A stretch of 64,000 bases of DNA from sequence record MZ234030.1, one strand, 5' to 3'. This DNA is from Escherichia phage vB_EcoM-CHD16UKE1. Positions within the stretch are counted from its first letter, which is position 1. Each line of letters opens with the position of its first letter. Both the position numbers and the translations under genes were made by a program. The notes under the pieces are model-generated. The model was not told the origin of the DNA, made no database searches, and saw only the letters and a program-made list of their open reading frames with translations. This document shows, in pieces, positions 17,016 through 64,000 of the stretch.

Positions 17016-18031
17016 AAATTTTAAATTTAGGTGATTGGCATTTAGGCGTTAAAGCCGATGATGAGTGGGTTCAATCCATTCAGTTGGATGGAATTAAACA
17101 AGCAATAGAATATTCTAAGAAAAATGGAATTACTACATGGATTCAATACGGCGATATTTTTGATGTGCGAAAAGCAATCACGCATAAAACTATGGAGTTC
17201 GCTCGTGAAATAGTTCAAATGCTTGATGATGCTGGTATTACCCTACATACTGTTGTAGGAAACCATGATATGCACTTTAAAAATACTTTAACTCCAAATG
17301 CCTCTACTGAGCTTTTGGCTAAATATCATAATGTTAAAGTATATGATAAGCCTACTACAGTAGATTTTGACGGATGTTTGATTGATTTAATTCCTTGGAT
17401 GTGTGAAGAAAATACTGGTGAAATTCTTGAACACATCAAAACTTCATCTGCTTCTTTTTGTGTTGGTCACTGGGAGCTGAATGGATTTTATTTTTATAAA
17501 GGAATGAAATCTCACGGTCTTGAACCTGATTTCCTTAAGACTTATAAAGAAGTGTGGTCTGGTCACTTCCATACTATTTCTGAGGCTGCTAACGTCAGAT
17601 ATATTGGGACACCATGGACACTAACAGCAGGTGACGAGAATGACCCTCGTGGGTTCTGGATGTTTGATACAGAAACAGAACGAATGGAATTTATTCCAAA
17701 TAATACTACCTGGCATCGTAGAATTCATTATCCATTTAAAGGAAAAATTGACTATAAAGATTTTACAAATCTATCAGTACGTGTTATAGTAACTGAAGTA
17801 GACAAAAATCTGACGAAGTTCGAATCTGAACTAGAGAAAGTTGTGCATTCATTACGAGTTGTGTCAAAGATTGATAACTCTGTCGAGTCAGATGACAGTG
17901 AAGAAGTTGAAGTTCAATCGCTTCAGACATTGATGGAAGAATACATTAATGCAATTCCAGACATCACCGATTCTGACCGTGAAGCACTTATTCAATATGC
18001 AAATCAGCTATATGTAGAGGCAACACAATGA
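17012..18031 (+). CDS. 47: recombination nuclease subunit gp47 (Mre11-like), 339 aa
   Basis: ORF track; phosphoesterase motifs (GDWH, GNHD); length matches T4 gp47. Confidence 0.85.
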   Translation: MKILNLGDWHLGVKADDEWVQSIQLDGIKQAIEYSKKNGITTWIQYGDIFDVRKAITHKTMEFAREIVQMLDDAGITLHTVVGNHDMHFKNTLTPNASTELLAKYHNVKVYDKPTTVDFDGCLIDLIPWMCEENTGEILEHIKTSSASFCVGHWELNGFYFYKGMKSHGLEPDFLKTYKEVWSGHFHTISEAANVRYIGTPWTLTAGDENDPRGFWMFDTETERMEFIPNNTTWHRRIHYPFKGKIDYKDFTNLSVRVIVTEVDKNLTKFESELEKVVHSLRVVSKIDNSVESDDSEEVEVQSLQTLMEEYINAIPDITDSDREALIQYANQLYVEATQ

Positions 18032-18291
18032 CTTTTGATGAATTTAAAAATGTTATGATGAGTCAGCATTTTGAATGCGAAGTAAAAGATGATATTGGGC
18101 ATAAAGAAATTATTGAATATTGGTTTGAACCGTTAGAGGTTGAAGATAATTGTATTAAAAAGGTTACAGTCTGCACTGACTGGGCTGTATCTTTTAACTT
18201 CAACATTTTAGATAATGACACACCTAAATCATTACGAGATATGGCCGTATCTTGTATTAAGGATGCATACTGTGAAGTTTTCGACATTTGA
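18028..18291 (+). CDS. hypothetical protein (87 aa)
   Basis: ORF track. Confidence 0.4.
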   Translation: MTFDEFKNVMMSQHFECEVKDDIGHKEIIEYWFEPLEVEDNCIKKVTVCTDWAVSFNFNILDNDTPKSLRDMAVSCIKDAYCEVFDI

Positions 18292-42289: not shown

Positions 42290-42346
42290 TGGAAGGACTT
42301 AGATTCATTATACCATGAAATTTTTAAAGCATTTTTACATAAAGTT

Positions 42347-42414: not shown

Positions 42415-43161
42415 ATGAAGCTGTCTAATAATCAAATTCGTAAAATTAAACGTCGTCTAGAGCATACTCAGGCATCTGCAAAAAGACGTTCTAAAGATTT
42501 TAACTTAGACTTCAATTACATTAAGAACATTTTAGATCAAAAAGTTTGTGCCTATTCAGGAGAACCTTTTGATAATCGTATTGAAGGAGAGAAATTATCA
42601 TTAGAACGTTTTGATAATAACGTTGGATACATTAAAGGGAATGTTATTGCAGTAAAGAAAAAGTATAATACATTTCGTTCTGATTATACTTTAGAGGAGT
42701 TGATTGAAAAGCGTGATTTATTTGCTTTGCGAATTGGTCGTTCATCTGCGAAAAAAGTTCATAAACTAAATTTAGATGAAAAGAAATGGGCTAAAATCAA
42801 AAAGACTTATAATCAAATTAAAGCTATACAGAAAAAACGTGAAAACCGAATTGAACACATTTCTCAGCTTTCTAAATCAAAACAGACCTCTGACATTAAG
42901 CTAAGGATTATAGCACTTAAAGCTCGTATTGATGGTTCTCGCATAGCAGAAGGCGCTGAAGTTGTTAAATTGAACGTTCTTCTTAAAGGCTCGGATTGGA
43001 AAATTGTGAAAAAGTTGTCAGAAGCAGAAATGCAATATGATATGTGTGATAAAATTATTCAAGGTGTAGAGCGGTATCAAAACTTGTCTTTTATTGATAA
43101 ACTTAAACTGAAAAGAGGATATCCGCTAAATTGTTCAATTTTTAAACTTATCCGAGGATAA
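42415..43161 (+). CDS. basic protein with degenerate HNH-like segment (248 aa; occupies the T4 srd position)
   Basis: ORF track; CAYSGEPF...LSLERFDNNVGYIKGNVIAV resembles HNH core but lacks the catalytic His. Confidence 0.4.
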   Translation: MKLSNNQIRKIKRRLEHTQASAKRRSKDFNLDFNYIKNILDQKVCAYSGEPFDNRIEGEKLSLERFDNNVGYIKGNVIAVKKKYNTFRSDYTLEELIEKRDLFALRIGRSSAKKVHKLNLDEKKWAKIKKTYNQIKAIQKKRENRIEHISQLSKSKQTSDIKLRIIALKARIDGSRIAEGAEVVKLNVLLKGSDWKIVKKLSEAEMQYDMCDKIIQGVERYQNLSFIDKLKLKRGYPLNCSIFKLIRG

Positions 43162-43162
43162 T

Positions 43163-43474
43163 ATGGTTTATGTATATGCGATAGTTTACCGAGACAAAGA
43201 CGGATTTACGGCGCCAGTTCCGCTTGATGAACATCGTCCTGCTGTATTTTTTGAATGGAATATTGCTGATAAAGTATTTACTACTCTTAAAGAGCAGTAT
43301 CGATTAGCTTTAGGTAAGGGAATTCCAAGATTAGTTGAGACTCCACGCAAGTTTTGGTTTAATAAAATAGAAGTTAAACATGTTAAGCCTGACGTAGACA
43401 CGCAAAGATTATATCAGCGAATTTTAGATACTGGGCGTATTGTTAGTATACCAATTGCAGGGAATTTACGATGA
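43163..43474 (+). CDS. hypothetical protein (103 aa)
   Basis: ORF track. Confidence 0.4.
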   Translation: MVYVYAIVYRDKDGFTAPVPLDEHRPAVFFEWNIADKVFTTLKEQYRLALGKGIPRLVETPRKFWFNKIEVKHVKPDVDTQRLYQRILDTGRIVSIPIAGNLR

Positions 43475-44790
43475 CATTTGATGATTTGACCGAAGGCCAG
43501 AAAAATGCCTTTAACATCGTTATGAGGGCTATTAAAGAAAAGAAACATCATGTAACTATTAATGGACCTGCTGGTACTGGTAAGACTACTCTTACTAAGT
43601 TCATCATTGAAGCTTTAATATCAACAGGCGAAACTGGTATCATTTTGGCAGCTCCTACACATGCAGCTAAAAAGATTCTTTCAAAACTGTCGGGGAAAGA
43701 AGCGAGTACTATTCACAGTATTCTCAAAATTAACCCAGTTACGTATGAAGAAAACGTTCTTTTTGAACAGAAGGAAGTACCGGATTTAGCTAAATGCAGG
43801 GTATTAATCTGCGACGAAGTGTCAATGTATGATAGAAAGCTATTTAAAATTCTGCTTTCAACTATCCCGCCGTGGTGTACTATAATTGGAATAGGTGATA
43901 ATAAGCAAATTAGACCTGTTGATCCAGGAGAAAATACTGCTTATATCAGTCCATTCTTTACACACAAAGATTTTTATCAGTGTGAACTTACTGAAGTTAA
44001 ACGCAGTAATGCTCCTATTATTGATGTAGCTACTGATGTTCGCAACGGTAAGTGGATTTATGATAAAGTTGTTGACGGTCATGGAGTACGTGGATTTACT
44101 GGTGATACCGCTTTACGCGATTTTATGGTAAATTATTTTTCAATCGTCAAATCACTAGATGATTTGTTTGAAAATCGCGTAATGGCATTTACGAATAAAT
44201 CTGTTGACAAGTTAAATAGCATTATTCGTAAAAAGATTTTTGAAACTGATAAAGATTTTATTGTCGGTGAAATTATTGTAATGCAGGAACCATTAATTAA
44301 AACATATAAAATTGATGGAAAGCCTGTGTCAGAAATTATTTTTAATAACGGACAATTAGTTCGTATTATAGAAGCAGAGTATACATCGACGTTTGTTAAA
44401 GCTCGTGGTGTTCCTGGAGAATATCTAATTCGTCATTGGGATTTAACAGTAGAAACTTATGGCGATGATGAATATTATCGTGAAAAGATTAAAATAATTT
44501 CATCTGATGAAGAACTGTATAAGTTTAACCTATTTTTAGGTAAAACGGCAGAAACTTATAAAAATTGGAACAAAGGCGGAAAAGCTCCATGGAGTGATTT
44601 TTGGGATGCTAAATCACAGTTTAGTAAAGTGAAAGCACTTCCTGCATCAACATTCCATAAAGCACAGGGCATGTCTGTAGACCGTGCTTTCATTTATACG
44701 CCTTGTATTCATTATGCAGATGCTGAATTGGCTCAACAACTTCTTTATGTTGGTGTCACCCGTGGTCGTTATGATGTATTTTATGTGTGA
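43471..44790 (+). CDS. dda: DNA helicase Dda (439 aa)
   Basis: ORF track; Walker A GPAGTGKTT; length matches T4 Dda. Confidence 0.9.
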   Translation: MTFDDLTEGQKNAFNIVMRAIKEKKHHVTINGPAGTGKTTLTKFIIEALISTGETGIILAAPTHAAKKILSKLSGKEASTIHSILKINPVTYEENVLFEQKEVPDLAKCRVLICDEVSMYDRKLFKILLSTIPPWCTIIGIGDNKQIRPVDPGENTAYISPFFTHKDFYQCELTEVKRSNAPIIDVATDVRNGKWIYDKVVDGHGVRGFTGDTALRDFMVNYFSIVKSLDDLFENRVMAFTNKSVDKLNSIIRKKIFETDKDFIVGEIIVMQEPLIKTYKIDGKPVSEIIFNNGQLVRIIEAEYTSTFVKARGVPGEYLIRHWDLTVETYGDDEYYREKIKIISSDEELYKFNLFLGKTAETYKNWNKGGKAPWSDFWDAKSQFSKVKALPASTFHKAQGMSVDRAFIYTPCIHYADAELAQQLLYVGVTRGRYDVFYV

Positions 44791-44796
44791 GGATAT

Positions 44797-45057
44797 ATGA
44801 TTAACATCAATTCAAAATATTTAAATCGTCTAATAGATGGTATAAGGAAGCATACTAATAAGCAAGATAATCTTAATGTTATGGTAACAGGAGCTGAGCT
44901 CCTTCATAAGCTTTATCTTATAAGTGATACTATATTAGCAATTAAACGAATTGAAAAACAATCATATCACAGTAATACAGATACGGTAATTACACTAGAT
45001 GAAAGTGTTTGTAAATTACTGATTAAATTTGAGGAAGCTATTCGTGGAAATAACTAA
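44797..45057 (+). CDS. hypothetical protein (86 aa)
   Basis: ORF track. Confidence 0.4.
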   Translation: MININSKYLNRLIDGIRKHTNKQDNLNVMVTGAELLHKLYLISDTILAIKRIEKQSYHSNTDTVITLDESVCKLLIKFEEAIRGNN

Positions 45058-45289
45058 AGATCAGTTTTATCTTCTTCAAGATAAAGTAAGCGAAATTTAT
45101 GAAATTGCTTATAGCAAAAATCGTGAAACTGTAAAAATAGAATCTAGTAAGTTGATGCTTCAATTAGAAGAAATTGAACGAGATTTAATTGCGTTAGAAT
45201 TCTTTTGTGGTGAAGTTAAAACTGTTACAATCAATGATTACGTTTTAGGCGAAATTAGCTATCTTTATAAGGCGATTATTAATGATTGA
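45029..45289 (+). CDS. hypothetical protein (about 81-86 aa; non-ATG start TTG 45029 or GTG 45044)
   Basis: ORF track; paralogous to next ORF. Confidence 0.35.
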   Translation: MRKLFVEITKDQFYLLQDKVSEIYEIAYSKNRETVKIESSKLMLQLEEIERDLIALEFFCGEVKTVTINDYVLGEISYLYKAIIND

Positions 45290-45524
45290 ATTAAGTTGGT
45301 ACCAATTTAAATCTCTTATGACAAATGTTAAAGCTGTCATTGAAGAAAATCCGGGTCCTGAAAATATTACTATTCGCGAAAAAGCTTTAAAGATAGTATA
45401 CAGTCTTGAAGAAATACAAAAAGATATTGAATCTATGGCAAAATTTATTGATGAGCCTATCAATAAAGTTTATATTCAAGACTATACTGTAGGTCAAATT
45501 CGTGATTTAGCGAGGAAAATTTAA
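45282..45524 (+). CDS. hypothetical protein (80 aa)
   Basis: ORF track. Confidence 0.4.
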   Translation: MIELSWYQFKSLMTNVKAVIEENPGPENITIREKALKIVYSLEEIQKDIESMAKFIDEPINKVYIQDYTVGQIRDLARKI

Positions 45525-46207
45525 TGTTTGATTTTATTATAGATTTTGAAACAATGGGAAGCGGTGAAAAAGCAGCTGTTATTGATTTGGCTGTAATTGC
45601 TTTTGACCCTAACCCAGAAGTAGTTGAAACATTTGATGAATTAGTTTCACGCGGCATTAAAATCAAATTTGATTTAAAAAGCCAAAAAGGACATCGTCTT
45701 TTTACTAAAAGCACTATCGAATGGTGGAAGAATCAATCTCCTGAAGCTCGAAAAAATATTGCACCATCAGATGAAGATGTAAGCACTATCGATGGTATTG
45801 CAAAATTTAATGATTACATCAATGCACATAATATCGATCCTTGGAAATCTCAAGGCTGGTGCCGTGGAATGTCGTTTGATTTTCCAATTTTAGTCGATCT
45901 CATTCGTGATATTCAACGTCTTAATGGTGTTTCTGAGAATGAGCTTGACACATTTAAGTTAGAACCATGTAAATTCTGGAATCAGCGTGATATTCGTACC
46001 AGAATTGAAGCACTTCTCCTTGTTCGTGATATGACCACTTGTCCTCTTCCAAAGGGAACTTTAGATGGATTCGTTGCACATGATTCTATTCATGACTGTG
46101 CGAAAGACATCTTGATGATGAAGTATGCTTTGCGCTATGCTATGGGTCTTGAAGACGCTCCATCAGAGGAAGAATGCGATCCTCTATCTCTTCCAACAAA
46201 ACGATAA
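45524..46207 (+). CDS. dexA: exonuclease A DexA (227 aa)
   Basis: ORF track; DEDD-like exonuclease start FIIDFETMG; length matches T4 DexA. Confidence 0.8.
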   Translation: MFDFIIDFETMGSGEKAAVIDLAVIAFDPNPEVVETFDELVSRGIKIKFDLKSQKGHRLFTKSTIEWWKNQSPEARKNIAPSDEDVSTIDGIAKFNDYINAHNIDPWKSQGWCRGMSFDFPILVDLIRDIQRLNGVSENELDTFKLEPCKFWNQRDIRTRIEALLLVRDMTTCPLPKGTLDGFVAHDSIHDCAKDILMMKYALRYAMGLEDAPSEEECDPLSLPTKR

Positions 46208-56889: not shown

Positions 56890-57105
56890 ATGAAAAGTTT
56901 TAAAGATGTAAAAGTTGGTGAAATTTTTTGTTTAGATAACGGTGATCAGTTAATTCGTATTTCACCTCTTAAGAGCACTAGCGAAAAAATGACAGTTAAT
57001 GCTACTTTAGCAAATAACAGTAATGAACGTTTCTGTATTGAAAATGATACTGAAACTTATACCGTAGAAGAGTTTTGGGAATTGAGCGTCGACTGCGACG
57101 ATTAA
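56890..57105 (+). CDS. hypothetical protein (71 aa)
   Basis: ORF track. Confidence 0.4.
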   Translation: MKSFKDVKVGEIFCLDNGDQLIRISPLKSTSEKMTVNATLANNSNERFCIENDTETYTVEEFWELSVDCDD

Positions 57106-57111
57106 TTTAAT

Positions 57112-57133
57112 GGCCGCGTGTATTCATGCGGCC
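57112..57133 (+). other. 9-bp-stem hairpin GGCCGCGUG-UAUU-CAUGCGGCC
   Basis: read from sequence between ORF 56890..57105 and ndd. Confidence 0.5.
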
Positions 57134-57165
57134 TTGGAGTAGAAAATAATTTAGAGGAAATTAAT

Positions 57166-57624
57166 ATGAAATACATGACTGTTACTGATCTGAATAATGC
57201 AGGCGCTACTGTTATTGGTACAATCAAGGGTGGTGAGTGGTTTTTGGGAACTCCGCATAAAGATATTTTATCTAAACCTGGATTTTATTTTTTAGTAAGT
57301 AAATTAGATGGTCGTCCATTTAGTAATCCATGTGTGTCTGCACGATTTTATGTAGGTAATCAGCGTTCTAAGCAAGGATTCAGTGCAGTTCTAAGTCATA
57401 TTCGTCAACGTCGGTCTCAGCTTGCACGTACTATTGCAAATAACAATATGGTATACACAGTATTTTATCTGCCTGCTTCTAAGATGAAACCTCTGACGAC
57501 GGGATTTGGAAAAGGACAGTTAGCTTTAGCGTTTACTCGTAATCATCATTCTGAGTATCAAACACTTGAAGAAATGAACCGTATGTTGGCTGATAATTTT
57601 AAATTCGTTTTGCAGGCATATTAA
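57166..57624 (+). CDS. ndd: nucleoid disruption protein Ndd-like (152 aa from ATG 57166)
   Basis: ORF track 57118..57624; ATG 57166; length and position between denB and 52. Confidence 0.5.
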
Positions 57625-57683
57625 TGAGTAATTTCCACAACGAACACGTGATGCAGTTCTATCGTAATAATCTTAAAACTAAA

Positions 57684-57699
57684 GGCGTCTTCGGACGCC
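57684..57699 (+). other. GGCGUC-UUCG-GACGCC hairpin directly upstream of an SD (no U-run)
   Basis: ggcgtcttcggacgcc. Confidence 0.5.
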
Positions 57700-57711
57700 A
57701 GTGAGGAAAAT

Positions 57712-57870
57712 ATGAATATCGCAAAATTATTAGGAGTTATTTCATTTATTTGTTGGATAGTAGCATGTGTTTTAACTATCTGTATTGATGCCAGCAGTGT
57801 GTTTTCGCAAGCTTTAGCTCAGGGTATGTGTGCATATTTAACATTTGTGTTGTTATCTACTAATGATTAA
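57712..57870 (+). CDS. small membrane protein (52 aa)
   Basis: ATG 57712 to TAA 57868-57870; hydrophobic. Confidence 0.3.
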   Translation: MNIAKLLGVISFICWIVACVLTICIDASSVFSQALAQGMCAYLTFVLLSTND

Positions 57871-58007
57871 GAAAATCTTGGGCTATTCATTAGCCCTTGC
57901 TATTTTATTGATAGCATTATATTACGGAATAATGTTCGGATTAATTCAAGTCGTGCTTTTCATTTCTGATGTTATTATGGCACTACATTCACTAGTATGG
58001 TAAATTT

Positions 58008-59336
58008 ATGCAACTGAATAATCGTGATTTAAAAAGTATCATTGATAATGAAGCATTGGCTTATGCTATGTACACGGTTGAAAATCGTGCCATTCCAAAT
58101 ATGATTGACGGATTTAAGCCAGTTCAACGATTTGTTATTGCTCGAGCTCTTGATTTGGCACGAGGAAATAAAGATAAGTTTCACAAACTCGCTTCTATCG
58201 CAGGCGGTGTAGCGGACCTTGGATATCATCATGGTGAAAACTCTGCGCAAGACGCAGGTGCTTTGATGGCTAACACTTGGAATAATAACTTTCCTCTGTT
58301 AGACGGTCAAGGAAACTTTGGTTCTCGTACTGTCCAAAAGGCAGCAGCAAGTCGTTATATTTTTGCTCGTGTAAGTAAAAATTTCTATAACGTATATAAA
58401 GATACTGAATATGCTCCAGTACATCAAGATAAAGAACACATTCCGCCTGCTTTCTATTTGCCTATTATTCCTACTGTTCTTCTTAATGGCGTTTCCGGTA
58501 TTGCAACTGGTTATGCAACTTACATTCTTCCTCATAGTGTTTCTTCTGTCAAGAAAGCTGTACTGCAAGCTCTTCAAGGAAAGAAAGTAACTAAACCGAA
58601 GGTAGAATTCCCAGAATTTCGTGGTGAAGTCGTTGAAATTGATGGGCAATATGAAATTCGTGGAACATATAAGTTTACTTCACGAACTCAAATGCATATC
58701 ACTGAGATTCCATATAAGTATGATCGTGAAACTTATGTGAGTAAAATCTTAGACCCGCTTGAAGATAAAGGCTTCATTACATGGGATGATGCTTGTGGTG
58801 AGCATGGCTTTGGCTTCAAAGTTAAATTCCGAAAAGAATACTCTTTGAGCGATAATGAAGAAGAACGCCATGCAAAAATTATGAAAGACTTCGGACTGAT
58901 TGAGCGTCGTTCTCAGAATATTACAGTCATTAATGAGAAAGGAAAGCTGCAAGTTTACGATAACGTAGTTGATTTAATCAAAGACTTCGTTGAAGTTCGT
59001 AAAACTTATGTCCAAAAACGAATTGATAACAAAATCAAAGAAACTGAATCAGCATTTCGTTTAGCTTTTGCCAAGGCACATTTCATTAAGAAAGTAATTT
59101 CAGGTGAAATTGTTGTACAAGGTAAAACTCGCAAAGAACTGACCGAAGAACTTTCTAAAATTGATATGTATTCTTCTTATGTTGATAAACTAGTTGGAAT
59201 GAACATTTTTCATATGACTTCCGACGAAGCAAAGAAACTTGCTGAAGAAGCTAAAGCCAAAAAAGAAGAAAACGAATATTGGAAAACTACTGATGTAGTT
59301 ACAGAATACACCAAAGATTTAGAGGAAATCAAATGA
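58008..59336 (+). CDS. 52: DNA topoisomerase II medium subunit gp52 (GyrA-like), 442 aa
   Basis: ORF track; length matches T4 gp52. Confidence 0.85.
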   Translation: MQLNNRDLKSIIDNEALAYAMYTVENRAIPNMIDGFKPVQRFVIARALDLARGNKDKFHKLASIAGGVADLGYHHGENSAQDAGALMANTWNNNFPLLDGQGNFGSRTVQKAAASRYIFARVSKNFYNVYKDTEYAPVHQDKEHIPPAFYLPIIPTVLLNGVSGIATGYATYILPHSVSSVKKAVLQALQGKKVTKPKVEFPEFRGEVVEIDGQYEIRGTYKFTSRTQMHITEIPYKYDRETYVSKILDPLEDKGFITWDDACGEHGFGFKVKFRKEYSLSDNEEERHAKIMKDFGLIERRSQNITVINEKGKLQVYDNVVDLIKDFVEVRKTYVQKRIDNKIKETESAFRLAFAKAHFIKKVISGEIVVQGKTRKELTEELSKIDMYSSYVDKLVGMNIFHMTSDEAKKLAEEAKAKKEENEYWKTTDVVTEYTKDLEEIK

Positions 59337-59950: not shown

Positions 59951-60586
59951 ATGTCTAAAGTAACTTACATCATCAAAGCTTCTAACGATGTTCTGAATGA
60001 AAAAACTGCTGCGATTTTAATTACCATTGCTAAGAAAGATTTCATTACAGCTGCAGAAGTTCGTGAGGTGCATCCAGATTTAGGTAACGCAGTAGTTAAT
60101 AGTAATATTGGGGTATTGATTAAAAAAGGCCTGGTGGAGAAATCTGGTGATGGATTAATCATTACAGGTGAAGCTCAAGATATTATTTCAAACGCAGCAA
60201 CTTTATACGCGCAGGAAAATGCTCCGGAACTACTGAAAAAACGAGCAACTCGTAAAGCTCGTGAGATTACTTCTGATATGGAAGAAGATAAAGACCTCAT
60301 GTTAAAACTTTTAGATGAAAATGGATTTGTTCTTAAAAAGGTTGAAACTTATCGTAGTAATTATCTTGCCATTTTAGAAAAACGCACTCACGGAATTCGT
60401 AATTTTGAAATTAACAATAATGGAAATATGCGAATTTTTGGATACAAAATGATGGAACATCATATTCAGAAATTTACTGATATCGGAATGTCATGTAAAA
60501 TCGCTAAAAACGGTAATGTGTATCTTGACATTAAACGCTCGGCAGAAAACATTGAAGCTGTAATCACTGTAGCATCTGAACTGTGA
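59951..60586 (+). CDS. motA: middle-transcription activator MotA (211 aa)
   Basis: ORF track; length and sequence match recalled T4 MotA. Confidence 0.85.
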   Translation: MSKVTYIIKASNDVLNEKTAAILITIAKKDFITAAEVREVHPDLGNAVVNSNIGVLIKKGLVEKSGDGLIITGEAQDIISNAATLYAQENAPELLKKRATRKAREITSDMEEDKDLMLKLLDENGFVLKKVETYRSNYLAILEKRTHGIRNFEINNNGNMRIFGYKMMEHHIQKFTDIGMSCKIAKNGNVYLDIKRSAENIEAVITVASEL

Positions 60587-60596
60587 GGAATAAATA

Positions 60597-60926
60597 ATGA
60601 ACAAGTTAGAAATTGTCAATGAACTTCGTCGTTGTGTAGAACCTACTCAAGAGGGTTGGGACATCTGGTACCATGGAGCTTATCTTGGAACTATCGTAAA
60701 GATTAAGACTGGTAAATACATGATTATTCGTGAAAGTAAAGATGCTCCAGTAGGTATTCGCAATAATTTTATGGCAGCGATAAGTTCATTTACGGATGCA
60801 GCTTACGAAATTTACCTTGCTGATTATAAAGAATTTCAGGAATCTCAACCAGTTATTCGTTCAATTGGTGTTAACAAAGCTCAACAGAAAACTTTATGGC
60901 AACGTATTAAAGGATGGTTTAAATGA
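60597..60926 (+). CDS. hypothetical protein (109 aa)
   Basis: ORF track. Confidence 0.4.
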
Positions 60927-61384
60927 ACCCATTTATTAATCGTTTAAAAATGCTGAATGTTCCTTTATGTCGTGAAACTCCAGAAAGTCTTGTTGAAAAA
61001 TTTAAAGCGCATGGTTATAAATGCACAGAAGAAGATATTCTAAAAGAAGTTCCTGAAATCTGTTGGCAGACCGCATACTGGGATGAAAACCAAAAGTATC
61101 AACGACGAATTGTTTGTGCCGCCAACCGTTTTAAATTAAAAGATGGACGAACTCTTGTTATTCCAGGTGCTCGTCATTATTCTAAAGATATGGCAGAAGT
61201 TTTAGATGTAGTTAAACCCCAATTAGTTACTCAGCAAGTTTGTGATGATGACCAAGGGTTTATTGATCAGTATAGCAATTACTGGACACGTGAAGAAGCA
61301 ATGATTATTGCAACTTACGCTGGACAAGTGCGTATTGAACGTGGTGGTAGTGAAAAAGAACTTTACTCTGAGGACCTTTACTAA
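60923..61384 (+). CDS. hypothetical protein (153 aa)
   Basis: ORF track. Confidence 0.4.
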
Positions 61385-61680
61385 TGAATATTAAAAAGTT
61401 TCAAATTGATGGAATTAAGAATCAAATCCAGGCGTTGGAATATGCCAATAAAATGATGTCAACTAATTGGGGAATTTATGCCAATGAACCGGCATTTCAG
61501 TTCTGTGATATGGAATTCACTAAAAAGCTCGTAGGAAAAGATTATGTATGTCCATTTAGTTATCCAGTAAATGGAATGCTAAAACTTGCTTTACGCGATC
61601 TTTATATTGCGATGAACGAAGAGATGATAAAAGAGCTAAAACGCCAACTGAAGGTGATTCAAATTGGCCAGGGAAATTAA
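61384..61680 (+). CDS. hypothetical protein (98 aa)
   Basis: ORF track. Confidence 0.4.
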   Translation: MNIKKFQIDGIKNQIQALEYANKMMSTNWGIYANEPAFQFCDMEFTKKLVGKDYVCPFSYPVNGMLKLALRDLYIAMNEEMIKELKRQLKVIQIGQGN

Positions 61681-61882
61681 TTCAAAATCCGATTATTTTA
61701 ATTCTCTCAACGATAAAGATAAAAATCTAATACGGCATTTTATTGTTGAGATGGGATATACCGATACACGCGATTTAAGAGAACATATATTTGAATGTGG
61801 TGTAGCTAAAAAGTTTTCATTCACATGCAAATGTTTAAGAGAGGTAATTCAGCACTATGAACAATTTAGTCGCAAAGCATAA
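61664..61882 (+). CDS. hypothetical protein (72 aa)
   Basis: ORF track. Confidence 0.35.
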   Translation: MAREINSKSDYFNSLNDKDKNLIRHFIVEMGYTDTRDLREHIFECGVAKKFSFTCKCLREVIQHYEQFSRKA

Positions 61883-61965
61883 TTTTAATAAAGCTTCTGT
61901 TCATAAGGATAAGAAGAAAGCGTTTAAAGAATCTAATCGCAAACAGAAACATAAGGGGAAGGTCT

Positions 61966-62244
61966 ATGATTATTGATTCTCAGTCTGTGGTTCAATACAC
62001 AATCAAAATTGATATTCTAGAAAAGCTATATAAGTTTCTACCAAATTTATACCACTCAATTGTTAATGAATTAGTTGAAGAACTACATCTTGAGAATAAT
62101 GATTTCTTGATTGGAACTTATAAAGACCTCTCAAAAGCAGGATATTTTTACGTAATTCCAGCTCCAGGAAAAAGTATTGATGATGTATTAGAAACTATAA
62201 TGATTTATGTCCATGATTACGAAATTGAAGATTATTTCGAATGA
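61966..62244 (+). CDS. arn: Arn-like protein (92 aa; anti-restriction against McrBC in T4)
   Basis: ORF track; 92 aa; position between motA and asiA. Confidence 0.5.
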   Translation: MIIDSQSVVQYTIKIDILEKLYKFLPNLYHSIVNELVEELHLENNDFLIGTYKDLSKAGYFYVIPAPGKSIDDVLETIMIYVHDYEIEDYFE

Positions 62245-62678: not shown

Positions 62679-63335
62679 TTATTTAGCCCTTCCTAATATT
62701 CTGGCCGCCTGAGCACATATTGATTCAAGGCGGTCATTACTTATATGATCATTTCTATACCAGTACATGGTTATCGTTCCAGCATAGATATTATCCAAAT
62801 TAAAATATGGACAACTGTACATGTAGTTTATTTCGGGAGTAGGCTTTTTAGTTGGTAAAAAAGCAAATTTTGAGTCGGAATAATAATGACGTCCATTTAA
62901 ATGAACTGTATATTCATCCATAGTTTTATCAACAGGATATCCTCCAAGTGATTTTTCACTTATTGTTGAAGGTAATTTTCCTTCATATGCTATAATATCA
63001 ACAAAATAGTTTAAGTTTTTAGGGCGGAAAGAATACACCGCACTAAAGTCTGCCTCAGATGATATATGAACTATCTGGAGTTGTTCCAGGGCGACAGATT
63101 CAAAGCGTGCATTTCTTTCCTTTTCAATAATTTCACTGTATGTTTCATACTTTGATTGCTTATAGTACTCAAAGAAACTATCTCCCCTATACCAAACAAT
63201 CGCCATCATAAATAAAAGAATTACGACAGCTACCCGGGAAGCAAGAACTTTCCCGGTAGCGTTATCTTTGAACAAGCGATCTAGAACACCAAATAGAATA
63301 TCAGAGGGCGAAAATGATATTCTAGGTGCTGCCAT
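62679..63335 (-). CDS. t: holin T (218 aa)
   Basis: ORF track; single TM near N-terminus, large periplasmic domain; length matches T4 T. Confidence 0.85.
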   Translation of the reverse strand: MAAPRISFSPSDILFGVLDRLFKDNATGKVLASRVAVVILLFMMAIVWYRGDSFFEYYKQSKYETYSEIIEKERNARFESVALEQLQIVHISSEADFSAVYSFRPKNLNYFVDIIAYEGKLPSTISEKSLGGYPVDKTMDEYTVHLNGRHYYSDSKFAFLPTKKPTPEINYMYSCPYFNLDNIYAGTITMYWYRNDHISNDRLESICAQAARILGRAK

Positions 63336-63353
63336 AGACCCTCCTTTTAGGGG

Positions 63354-63361
63354 TATTTATT
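63354..63361 (-). promoter_or_regulatory. late-promoter-like box (AATAAATA) between gene 38 stop and t start
   Basis: reverse complement of tatttatt. Confidence 0.35.
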
Positions 63362-63366
63362 CAAAA

Positions 63367-63954
63367 TTATACTCTTGGACCATATATTACTCCAACATTT
63401 TGCCAAGTTGGAGCAGATCCTATGACAGCATAACCTGCTGCTCCTCCTGCACCAACCTTTAGAACTTTACCACCATCAGACCAGGCATTTTGTCCATTTC
63501 CTCCGGCATCGCCGCCCTGGCCAGAGTGAGCATTTCCGTATTGGTAACCACCTCCTGGGGCGACGTATGAAGCTGCGCCACCTGAGTAACCACCGCCACC
63601 ACCTGGGCCAAATGGTCTTCCGCCGCCACCACCAATATCTTGCCAGTCTGCCCCTGAGTGAACACGGTAAGCAATGCCGCCACCACCGCCTCCGCCACCA
63701 CAGATTACTCCACCATTGTTAATTCTTAATCGTCCACCAATGTCGTTTTGAATACAATGCCCGCCTTGTTGTCCATTACCATCTCCACCGGAATGAGTCC
63801 ATCCACCTTGTCCACCTCTACCCCACATATGAGCGCCAATAATATTTAACTGAACATATTCATTTGGTGTATCTCCGTACATGAAGAATAAAGGAACATC
63901 TTTAGAGAACATATTCATTTGGTGTATCTCCGTACATGAAGAATAAAGGAACAT
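63367..63954 (-). CDS. 38: gp38 receptor-recognising adhesin, glycine-rich C-terminal domain ORF (195 aa), T2-type
   Basis: ORF track; polyglycine motifs; [20 protein letters not shown] and [19 protein letters not shown] blocks as recalled from T2 gp38. Confidence 0.7.
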
Positions 63955-63961
63955 CTTTAGA
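63852..63961 (-). repeat. perfect 55-bp direct tandem duplication (2 copies) at the 5' end of the gene 38 ORF
   Basis: identical units at 63852-63906 and 63907-63961; flanks do not extend the match. Confidence 0.9.
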
Positions 63962-64000
63962 AATCACCTGTAATATTAAACACTATAGGTGCATTACCTG
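63957..64000 (-). CDS. 3' end of upstream ORF (...[13 protein letters not shown]), gp38 N-terminal domain fragment or gp37 C-terminus; truncated by window
   Basis: only open minus-strand frame at window edge; stop TAA at plus 63957-63959 inside distal repeat copy. Confidence 0.4.

Follow-up and report, generated by a model that had tools for sequence, protein, structure and literature searches.

The window analyzed here, a stretch of 64,000 nucleotides from the sequence record MZ234030.1 of Escherichia phage vB_EcoM-CHD16UKE1 (CHD16UKE1), ends within gene 38. In the maps of the sibling phages the locus order is gp37, gp38, t and asiA, with gene 38 and the holin gene t on the same strand. The features at this end of the window are the following.

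62679-63335, minus strand: holin gene t, 218 aa, directly downstream of gene 38 in all relatives (ORF list and sibling annotations).
63367-63954, minus strand: ORF of 195 aa, rich in glycine and a member of the family of gp38 adhesins (ORF list and translation).
63370-63906, minus strand: native-frame portion of gp38, residues S87-V265 of the intact 265-aa protein (identity to sibling gp38, and Pfam).
63852-63906, no strand assigned: repeat copy A, the second in gene sense, in the native gp38 frame (TRF and exact-match scan).
63907-63961, no strand assigned: repeat copy B, the extra copy and the first in gene sense, which occupies the place of 11 missing bp (alignment).
63957-64000, minus strand: end of the gp38 N-terminal frame, consisting of residues G71-D82, one non-native Phe and TAA (translation and sibling gp38).

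The 195-aa ORF presents the motifs GGGGGGGG, GGGGG, GGGGG and GGG, with variable segments between them. Translation places its ATG at 63952-63954. The upstream frame differs from that of the ORF and terminates with the TAA at 63957-63959, leaving 2 nt between this stop codon and the ATG. Codons 1-70 of the N-terminal part of gp38 lie beyond the end of the window; residues 1-82 were taken from sibling gp38. The glycine-rich ORF with these motifs and the separate frame upstream of it were both reported in a preliminary description of this DNA, and both are confirmed by translation and by the match of the ORF to Pfam PF05268 ('Phage tail fibre adhesin Gp38', E=1e-46).

This Pfam match reaches 159.8 bits (cut-off 25) and covers profile positions 40-218 of 218, and the ORF also matches PHROG 2056 (E=2e-60). 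The 195-aa product was looked up by exact match in a gene-position collection, with no record found. Intact sibling gp38, identical over the shared part, matches the structures 9v85_A (E=8e-73) and 6f45_D (E=3e-51), and its residues 1-42 constitute the Pfam domain PF21721 (Gp38_N). Five glycine-rich motifs, four hypervariable segments and a conserved C-terminus align column-for-column with the gp38 proteins of AV119, FL08 and G3F10; the motifs and the variable receptor-binding loops are contained in the native-frame portion S87-V265. The protein thus shares gene position and motif/segment layout with the T2/S16-type gp38 (PF05268 plus PF21721; PDB 6F45 chain D and 9V85), and differs from it, and from the 'type 1' proteins of AV119 and FL08, only in a record-level lesion after codon 82. 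The T4-type gp38 has the same gene number and the same locus, but it is an unrelated protein, a gp37 assembly chaperone that is not in the virion, a distinction drawn previously (PMC12892980); the 195-aa ORF matches the adhesin family and not the chaperone of T4. The proposal of a T2/Ox2-type glycine-rich adhesin is borne out by the PF05268 match and the sibling alignment. Its presence in a T4-like backbone had been presented as unusual, and this part does not hold, as more than 430 Tequatrovirus and related records have a T2-type gp38 at the same position.

The structural basis of receptor recognition by adhesins of this type has been described. They are monomers that attach by their N-terminal domain to the gp37 trimer's tip; the beta-helix domain is built jointly from N- and C-terminal segments, and the hypervariable loops protrude from a polyglycine-II sandwich, for which the layout of the glycine motifs is described as well (PMC12032242). 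Over residues 87-265 the CHD16UKE1 protein shows one difference from the gp38 of AV119 (D173 here, N in AV119) and three from that of FL08. The residues of AV119 that contact OmpA (R165, G169 and A170) correspond to R167, G171 and A172 here and are conserved. Both AV119 and FL08 are OmpA-dependent by knockout and belong to 'type 1', the class with a broad range of OmpA variants (PMC12032242). On account of this near-identity to the two proteins, the receptor of CHD16UKE1 gp38 is predicted to be OmpA. The adhesin type and the receptor class are hence ones already known in a common phage genus.

What sets the CHD16UKE1 record apart is the interruption of the gene. In all siblings Gp38_N is contiguous with the receptor-binding part in one ORF of 260-265 aa; in this record the ORF breaks after codon 82, and we attribute the missing contiguity to the lesion in the record and not to the gene. 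The closest public genomes are those of the Tequatrovirus vB_EcoM-CHD2BS1, G3F6, G3G7, PM107 and others, together with JK08 and PYPS2T. In the closest relatives the place between gene 37 and the holin gene t is taken by just one gene 38, 798 bp long (265 aa), and the intact protein measures 263-265 aa in the siblings and 260-265 aa across the relatives. According to the preliminary description, in intact gp38 the peptide of the upstream frame stands shortly before the segment that follows, and the sibling translations agree; the gene is indeed broken in two frames, of which the upstream one is the N-terminal part of gp38, corresponding to sibling residues 71-82. It was also considered that the upstream frame might be the normal C-terminus of gp37, with a gp38 of 195 aa standard in the lineage. 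This reading is refuted. In the siblings this DNA codes for residues 71-82 within one gp38 of 265 aa, gene 37 is a separate ORF of ~995 aa that starts more than 30 nt further upstream in these genomes, and the gp38 of the relatives spans 260-265 aa. What was found is therefore a gp38 frame upstream, in a lineage whose intact siblings have 263-265 aa.

The cause of the split frames, which the preliminary description had not seen, is a 55-bp duplication together with an 11-bp loss. Tandem Repeats Finder (TRF) detects an exact repeat at 63852-63961 (period 55, 2.0 copies, 100% match), the sole tandem repeat of the entire 64-kb window. Alignment with CHD2BS1 and JK08 identifies the lost 11 bp as TAGTATCATAT (gene sense), which comprise codons L83-Y86 and normally precede the 55-bp unit. 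The loss is sited at the 63961|63962 junction, with zero spacing from the duplication, and the net change in gene 38 is +44 nt, a second copy of 55 bp standing in place of 11 bp. The two mutant junctions are thus the copy|copy junction, ...CATCTTTAGA|GAACATATTC..., and the loss site, ...CTTTAGA|AATCACC...; the wild-type junction reads GGAACATCTTTAGAATATGATACTAAATCACCTG. As a consequence the 195-aa ORF is composed of 16 non-native residues, followed by gp38 residues 87-265 and the stop codon, as seen in the alignment, and the non-native residues are repeat copy 1 (gene sense) translated out of frame. Restoring the 11 bp and removing one copy yields 0 mismatches in 590 nt relative to the gp38 of CHD2BS1. 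Removal of a single copy was tried as a full repair and rejected: the frame is still broken, and the 11 bp are needed too.

The lesion is the only frame-breaking indel relative to the siblings in 24 kb. Window positions 62988-63906 are 100% identical to G3G7, and the other indels relative to the siblings in these 24 kb are intergenic or in-frame only, for which reason the CHD16UKE1 record is otherwise sound.

The remaining indels are small. At window position 60737, G3G7 has 15 bp, TCTGAATTACCTAAC, that the window and PM107 lack, an in-frame indel. It falls in the ORF at 60597-60926, a small ORF downstream of motA that the siblings annotate as 'anti-restriction nuclease'. Indels of 1-2 bp occur at 42331, 42378, 59524 and 59613, all of them intergenic.

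We searched for the lesion in other sequences. It was present in 0 of 433 matching phage records, all of which span 117 nt where the window spans 161 nt. Neither of the two mutant junctions was present in IMG/VR, and the duplication junction was absent from metagenome contigs, while the wild-type junction was found. As there was no match in the phage records, in IMG/VR or in the metagenome contigs, the lesion is not a circulating variant of gene 38.

If the lesion were real, the adhesin could be made as two polypeptides, as the preliminary description had proposed, or could have lost its attachment domain. A fragment of ~83 aa for attachment to gp37 and a translationally coupled receptor-binding fragment of 195 aa would reassociate at the tip of the fiber. 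The local geometry is compatible with coupling: TAA and ATG are 2 nt apart, a weak Shine-Dalgarno (SD)-like GGTGA stands 9 nt upstream, and, owing to the +1 shift that a copy of 55 nt brings, the ATG of copy 1 enters the native frame of copy 2. The structure of the protein argues against it. The break after residue 82 falls inside the Pfam GP38 domain (at approximately profile position 40 of 218) and not between Gp38_N and the rest, the published fold joins N- and C-terminal segments in the beta-helix domain (PMC12032242), and a chimera required the N-terminal 113 aa to be matched to gp37 (PMC12892980). The C-terminal fragment would, moreover, bear 16 junk residues, and all of the evidence for an artifact given below applies to this arrangement too. 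We regard it as very unlikely. Neither two polypeptides nor a lost attachment domain is supported by a break that is unique to this record and has the length of a SPAdes k, when sibling records show the same type of lesion, the phage plaques on ~43% of the panel and gene 38 is essential.

A translational bypass of the type known from T4 gene 60 would be a second way for a real lesion to be tolerated. The ribosome would take off with peptidyl-tRNA-Phe at TTC 63960-63962, which is followed by the TAA, skip 50 nt, land at TTC 63907-63909 and continue from S87 in frame, to give a 262-aa gp38 in which LVSY is replaced by F. The likeness to gene 60 extends to the TTC/TTC codons, the stop after the take-off site, the 50-nt gap and the setting in a late gene of a T-even phage. 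The matched take-off and landing codons, the immediate stop and a gap of exactly 50 nt, after which SKDVP follows in frame, speak for it; the a posteriori chance of a codon match with an immediate stop is roughly 0.1%. The elements that direct bypassing in gene 60 are, in contrast, not in evidence. There is no take-off hairpin, the local minimum free energy (MFE) being -2.3 kcal/mol, and the 86-nt segment gives -14.8, with -10.7 as the average of its shuffled versions (z=-1.5). Offsets 8, 12, 16 and 19 of the gap, within its first 22 nt, are occupied by four competing TTC/TTT sites, and the SD-like GGAG is placed ~19 nt before the landing site instead of ~6 nt. The nascent-peptide signal of gp60 is rich in basic residues; the upstream peptide, known from the siblings, does not look so by eye. 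Furthermore, the 'gap' is a perfect copy of downstream coding sequence with a length of k=55, and sibling records contain the same class of artifact. The window departs from gene 60 in its absent stem-loop, competing landing codons and misplaced SD-like element, and shows no evident nascent-peptide signal; the geometry looks like a coincidence. Bypassing is in our estimation the least probable of the readings that take the lesion as real, at the edge of what merits consideration. Were it true, T-even phages would have a second natural hop like that of gene 60, this one located in a host-range determinant.

The length of the duplication directs attention to the assembler. CHD16UKE1 belongs to the series MZ234008-MZ234053, produced from MiSeq reads with SPAdes 3.13.0/3.14.1, Geneious and Prokka (Loose et al. 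2021, PMC8614997). A search for publicly deposited raw reads found none. Base 1 of the window coincides with the first base of over ten records in the series; this common start is the start of a CDS. Two other records of the series possess duplications of the same kind. CHD2BS1 (MZ234027.1) has an exact two-copy tandem duplication of 55 bp at 18015-18125, a stretch that takes in the gp47 stop codon and the start of the following ORF. The window does not have this duplication, nothing else is altered at the joint, and in the alignment 25,000 window bases are covered by 25,055 bases of CHD2BS1. The record lengths of G3G6 (168,522), CHD2BS1 (168,577; +55) and G3G7 (168,649; +127) predicted a 127-bp duplication in G3G7 beforehand, and it was then found. 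The G3G7 record (MZ234040.1) has an exact two-copy tandem duplication of 127 bp at record positions 66463-66718. The duplication lies within gene 37, shifts its frame and leads to its annotation as two overlapping tail-fiber ORFs. At this joint a private C>T change occupies the base directly 5' of the duplicated 127-bp unit, and over 5.8 kb there is no other mismatch to CHD2BS1; PM107 has C at this position too. Each of the three duplications, those of CHD2BS1, G3G7 and the window, is absent from the other two records, and they are the only exact tandem duplications with a period of 20-400 in ~310 kb of phage DNA scanned. Both 55 and 127 are standard SPAdes k values, and 55 is a default one.

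Comparable duplications have been traced to the assembler in other phages: duplications of 127 bp at the ends of SPAdes assemblies of circular or permuted genomes were assembly products according to PCR and Sanger sequencing and were removed (PMC9206674, PMC9009655). The window resembles this end-overlap artifact in that its exact copies are as long as a SPAdes k (55), use of the assembler in the series is documented, and the series includes a clean example of 55 bp in MZ234027 and one of 127 bp in MZ234040. It differs in that its duplication is internal and tandem, the contig having been rotated to the common start, and in that its joint has an abutting loss of 11 bp, where the G3G7 joint has an abutting change of 1 nt. 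In MZ234012, a small genome from the batch, a scan detected neither tandem nor terminal k-overlaps, and the artifact is thus not universal in the batch.

The reported behavior of the phages can be set against these lesions. CHD16UKE1 was 'ancestor A' of a breeding experiment and plaques on 42-43% of the test strains; it had the best kinetic host range among the ancestors and a normal appearance by TEM, and was used as a breeding parent (PMC8614997). 'Ancestor B' was G3G7, with plaques on 49% of the strains (PMC8614997). Since gene 37, an essential gene, is frameshifted in the G3G7 record and the phage nevertheless plaques on 49% of strains, its 127-bp duplication cannot be in the virus. Phages with T2-type fibers cannot form plaques without gene 38, and gp38 must match gp37 in its N-terminal ~113 aa (PMC12892980). 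For both reasons, if gp38 were truly interrupted after residue 82, no plaques would be expected, against the reported phenotype of CHD16UKE1.

The bred phages are described as A/B mosaics (PMC8614997). Consistent with this description, a three-way alignment over window positions 40000-64000 resolves PM107 into long blocks identical to the window or to G3G7, essentially without private sites. The window-identical blocks, at ~42432-45589, 57000-58418 and 60025-61986, alternate with G3G7-identical blocks; this pattern marks the window very probably as ancestor A, and the block edges give recombination breakpoints.

From these data we conclude, with a probability of about 0.86, that the 'split' gp38 is a normal T2-type gene broken by an artifact of assembly or finishing, and not by phage biology. 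SPAdes would have assembled the genome as a circular path, and the linear output would have repeated the final k-mer (k=55) at both ends. Rotation of this contig to the common start of the series without trimming of the overlap would then have left the old contig joint as an exact 55-bp tandem duplication accompanied by a small contig-end error, the abutting 11-bp loss. We infer the in-silico origin of this particular duplication, and likewise that the loss belongs to the same joint. Because the loss abuts the duplication with zero spacing, it is very improbable that the two arose independently; either both come from the joint or both are real. The actual phage would most likely have one intact 265-aa gp38 that reads ...CTTTAGAATATGATACTAAATCACC... 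at the site. The N-terminal part of this protein would sit on the gp37 trimer, and its polyglycine-II core would present the variable loops to the outer-membrane protein.

Some observations do not fit this explanation easily. An overlap that is simply left untrimmed yields a duplication with nothing else changed, like that of CHD2BS1, and the 11-bp loss requires an extra error. A de Bruijn bubble between the wild-type and the delta-11 sequences was examined as the exact route and rejected, as under this model the duplicated 55-mer would be displaced by 1 nt, with A and not G at 63907. A private change directly beside the duplicated unit occurs at two of the three joints, as would result from opening the circular path at a branch point of the assembly graph, which supports the origin at a joint. 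Two of the three k-length duplications also lie in the gene 37-38 module, ~2% of the genome, with roughly p=0.002 if joints were random. This bias suggests that heterogeneity of the lysate in the receptor-binding genes sets where the assembler cuts the circular path. The bias itself, a frameshift in the gp38 of G3F7 and the gene 60-like geometry are further points against an artifact.

The frameshift in G3F7 (MZ234035.1) is of another kind. Its gene 38 (record 61353-62107) has a 28-bp deletion, GATATGCAATCAGGCGCGACTGGCGGTA, in a variable loop, flanked by the 5-bp direct repeat CTATT, and is split by it into two CDS annotated as 'receptor recognizing protein'. The deletion is unique among 76 matching records, and 28 is not a k-mer length. 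It thus has the appearance of a genuine deletion by slipped mispairing, in a gene that is essential.

The last alternative to weigh is that the lesion, or at least the 11-bp deletion, was real in the sequenced stock, as a null allele of gene 38. In one variant the defective form could have been carried along with functional phage, possibly causing the branch of the graph that placed the joint. Several of the observations above accord with such an allele: a clean k-overlap leaves the 11-bp loss unaccounted for, the joints seem to be placed at variant sites, two of the three fall in genes 37-38, and G3F7 provides a gp38 frameshift of a non-assembler type in the same collection. Yet gene 38 is essential and the phage was plaque-purified with a broad host range, so a null allele cannot be the majority genotype. 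Were the duplication real, the equality of its 55 bp with the assembler k would be a coincidence. The progeny PM phages, finally, carry the intact allele beside window-type markers. We consider a real null allele unlikely, although clearly less so than the two-polypeptide arrangement or bypassing, and retain the assembly joint as the explanation of the lesion.

The annotations of the series deserve a separate remark. Product names in MZ234027 and MZ234042 are often plainly wrong, with ten consecutive 'thioredoxin' CDS at the start of the record and 'molybdenum ABC transporter' on small early genes near modA. For this reason the annotations of the MZ2340xx series should not be used for the transfer of function.

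For data quality the finding means that untrimmed k-mer overlaps occur in no fewer than three public records (MZ234030, MZ234040 and MZ234027) from a single phage-therapy collection. Automated annotation yields 'two ORFs' from such lesions, which can mislead comparative or machine-learning analyses. A screen for exact tandem duplications of length 21, 33, 55, 77, 99 or 127 is able to catch them. In two of the three affected records the break hits gene 37 or gene 38, the receptor-binding genes on which host-range prediction, receptor assignment and fiber engineering draw. The biological weight of the finding is small: CHD16UKE1 is a common Tequatrovirus with a known, OmpA-type gp38, and the 'split' of this adhesin is very probably not in the virus.
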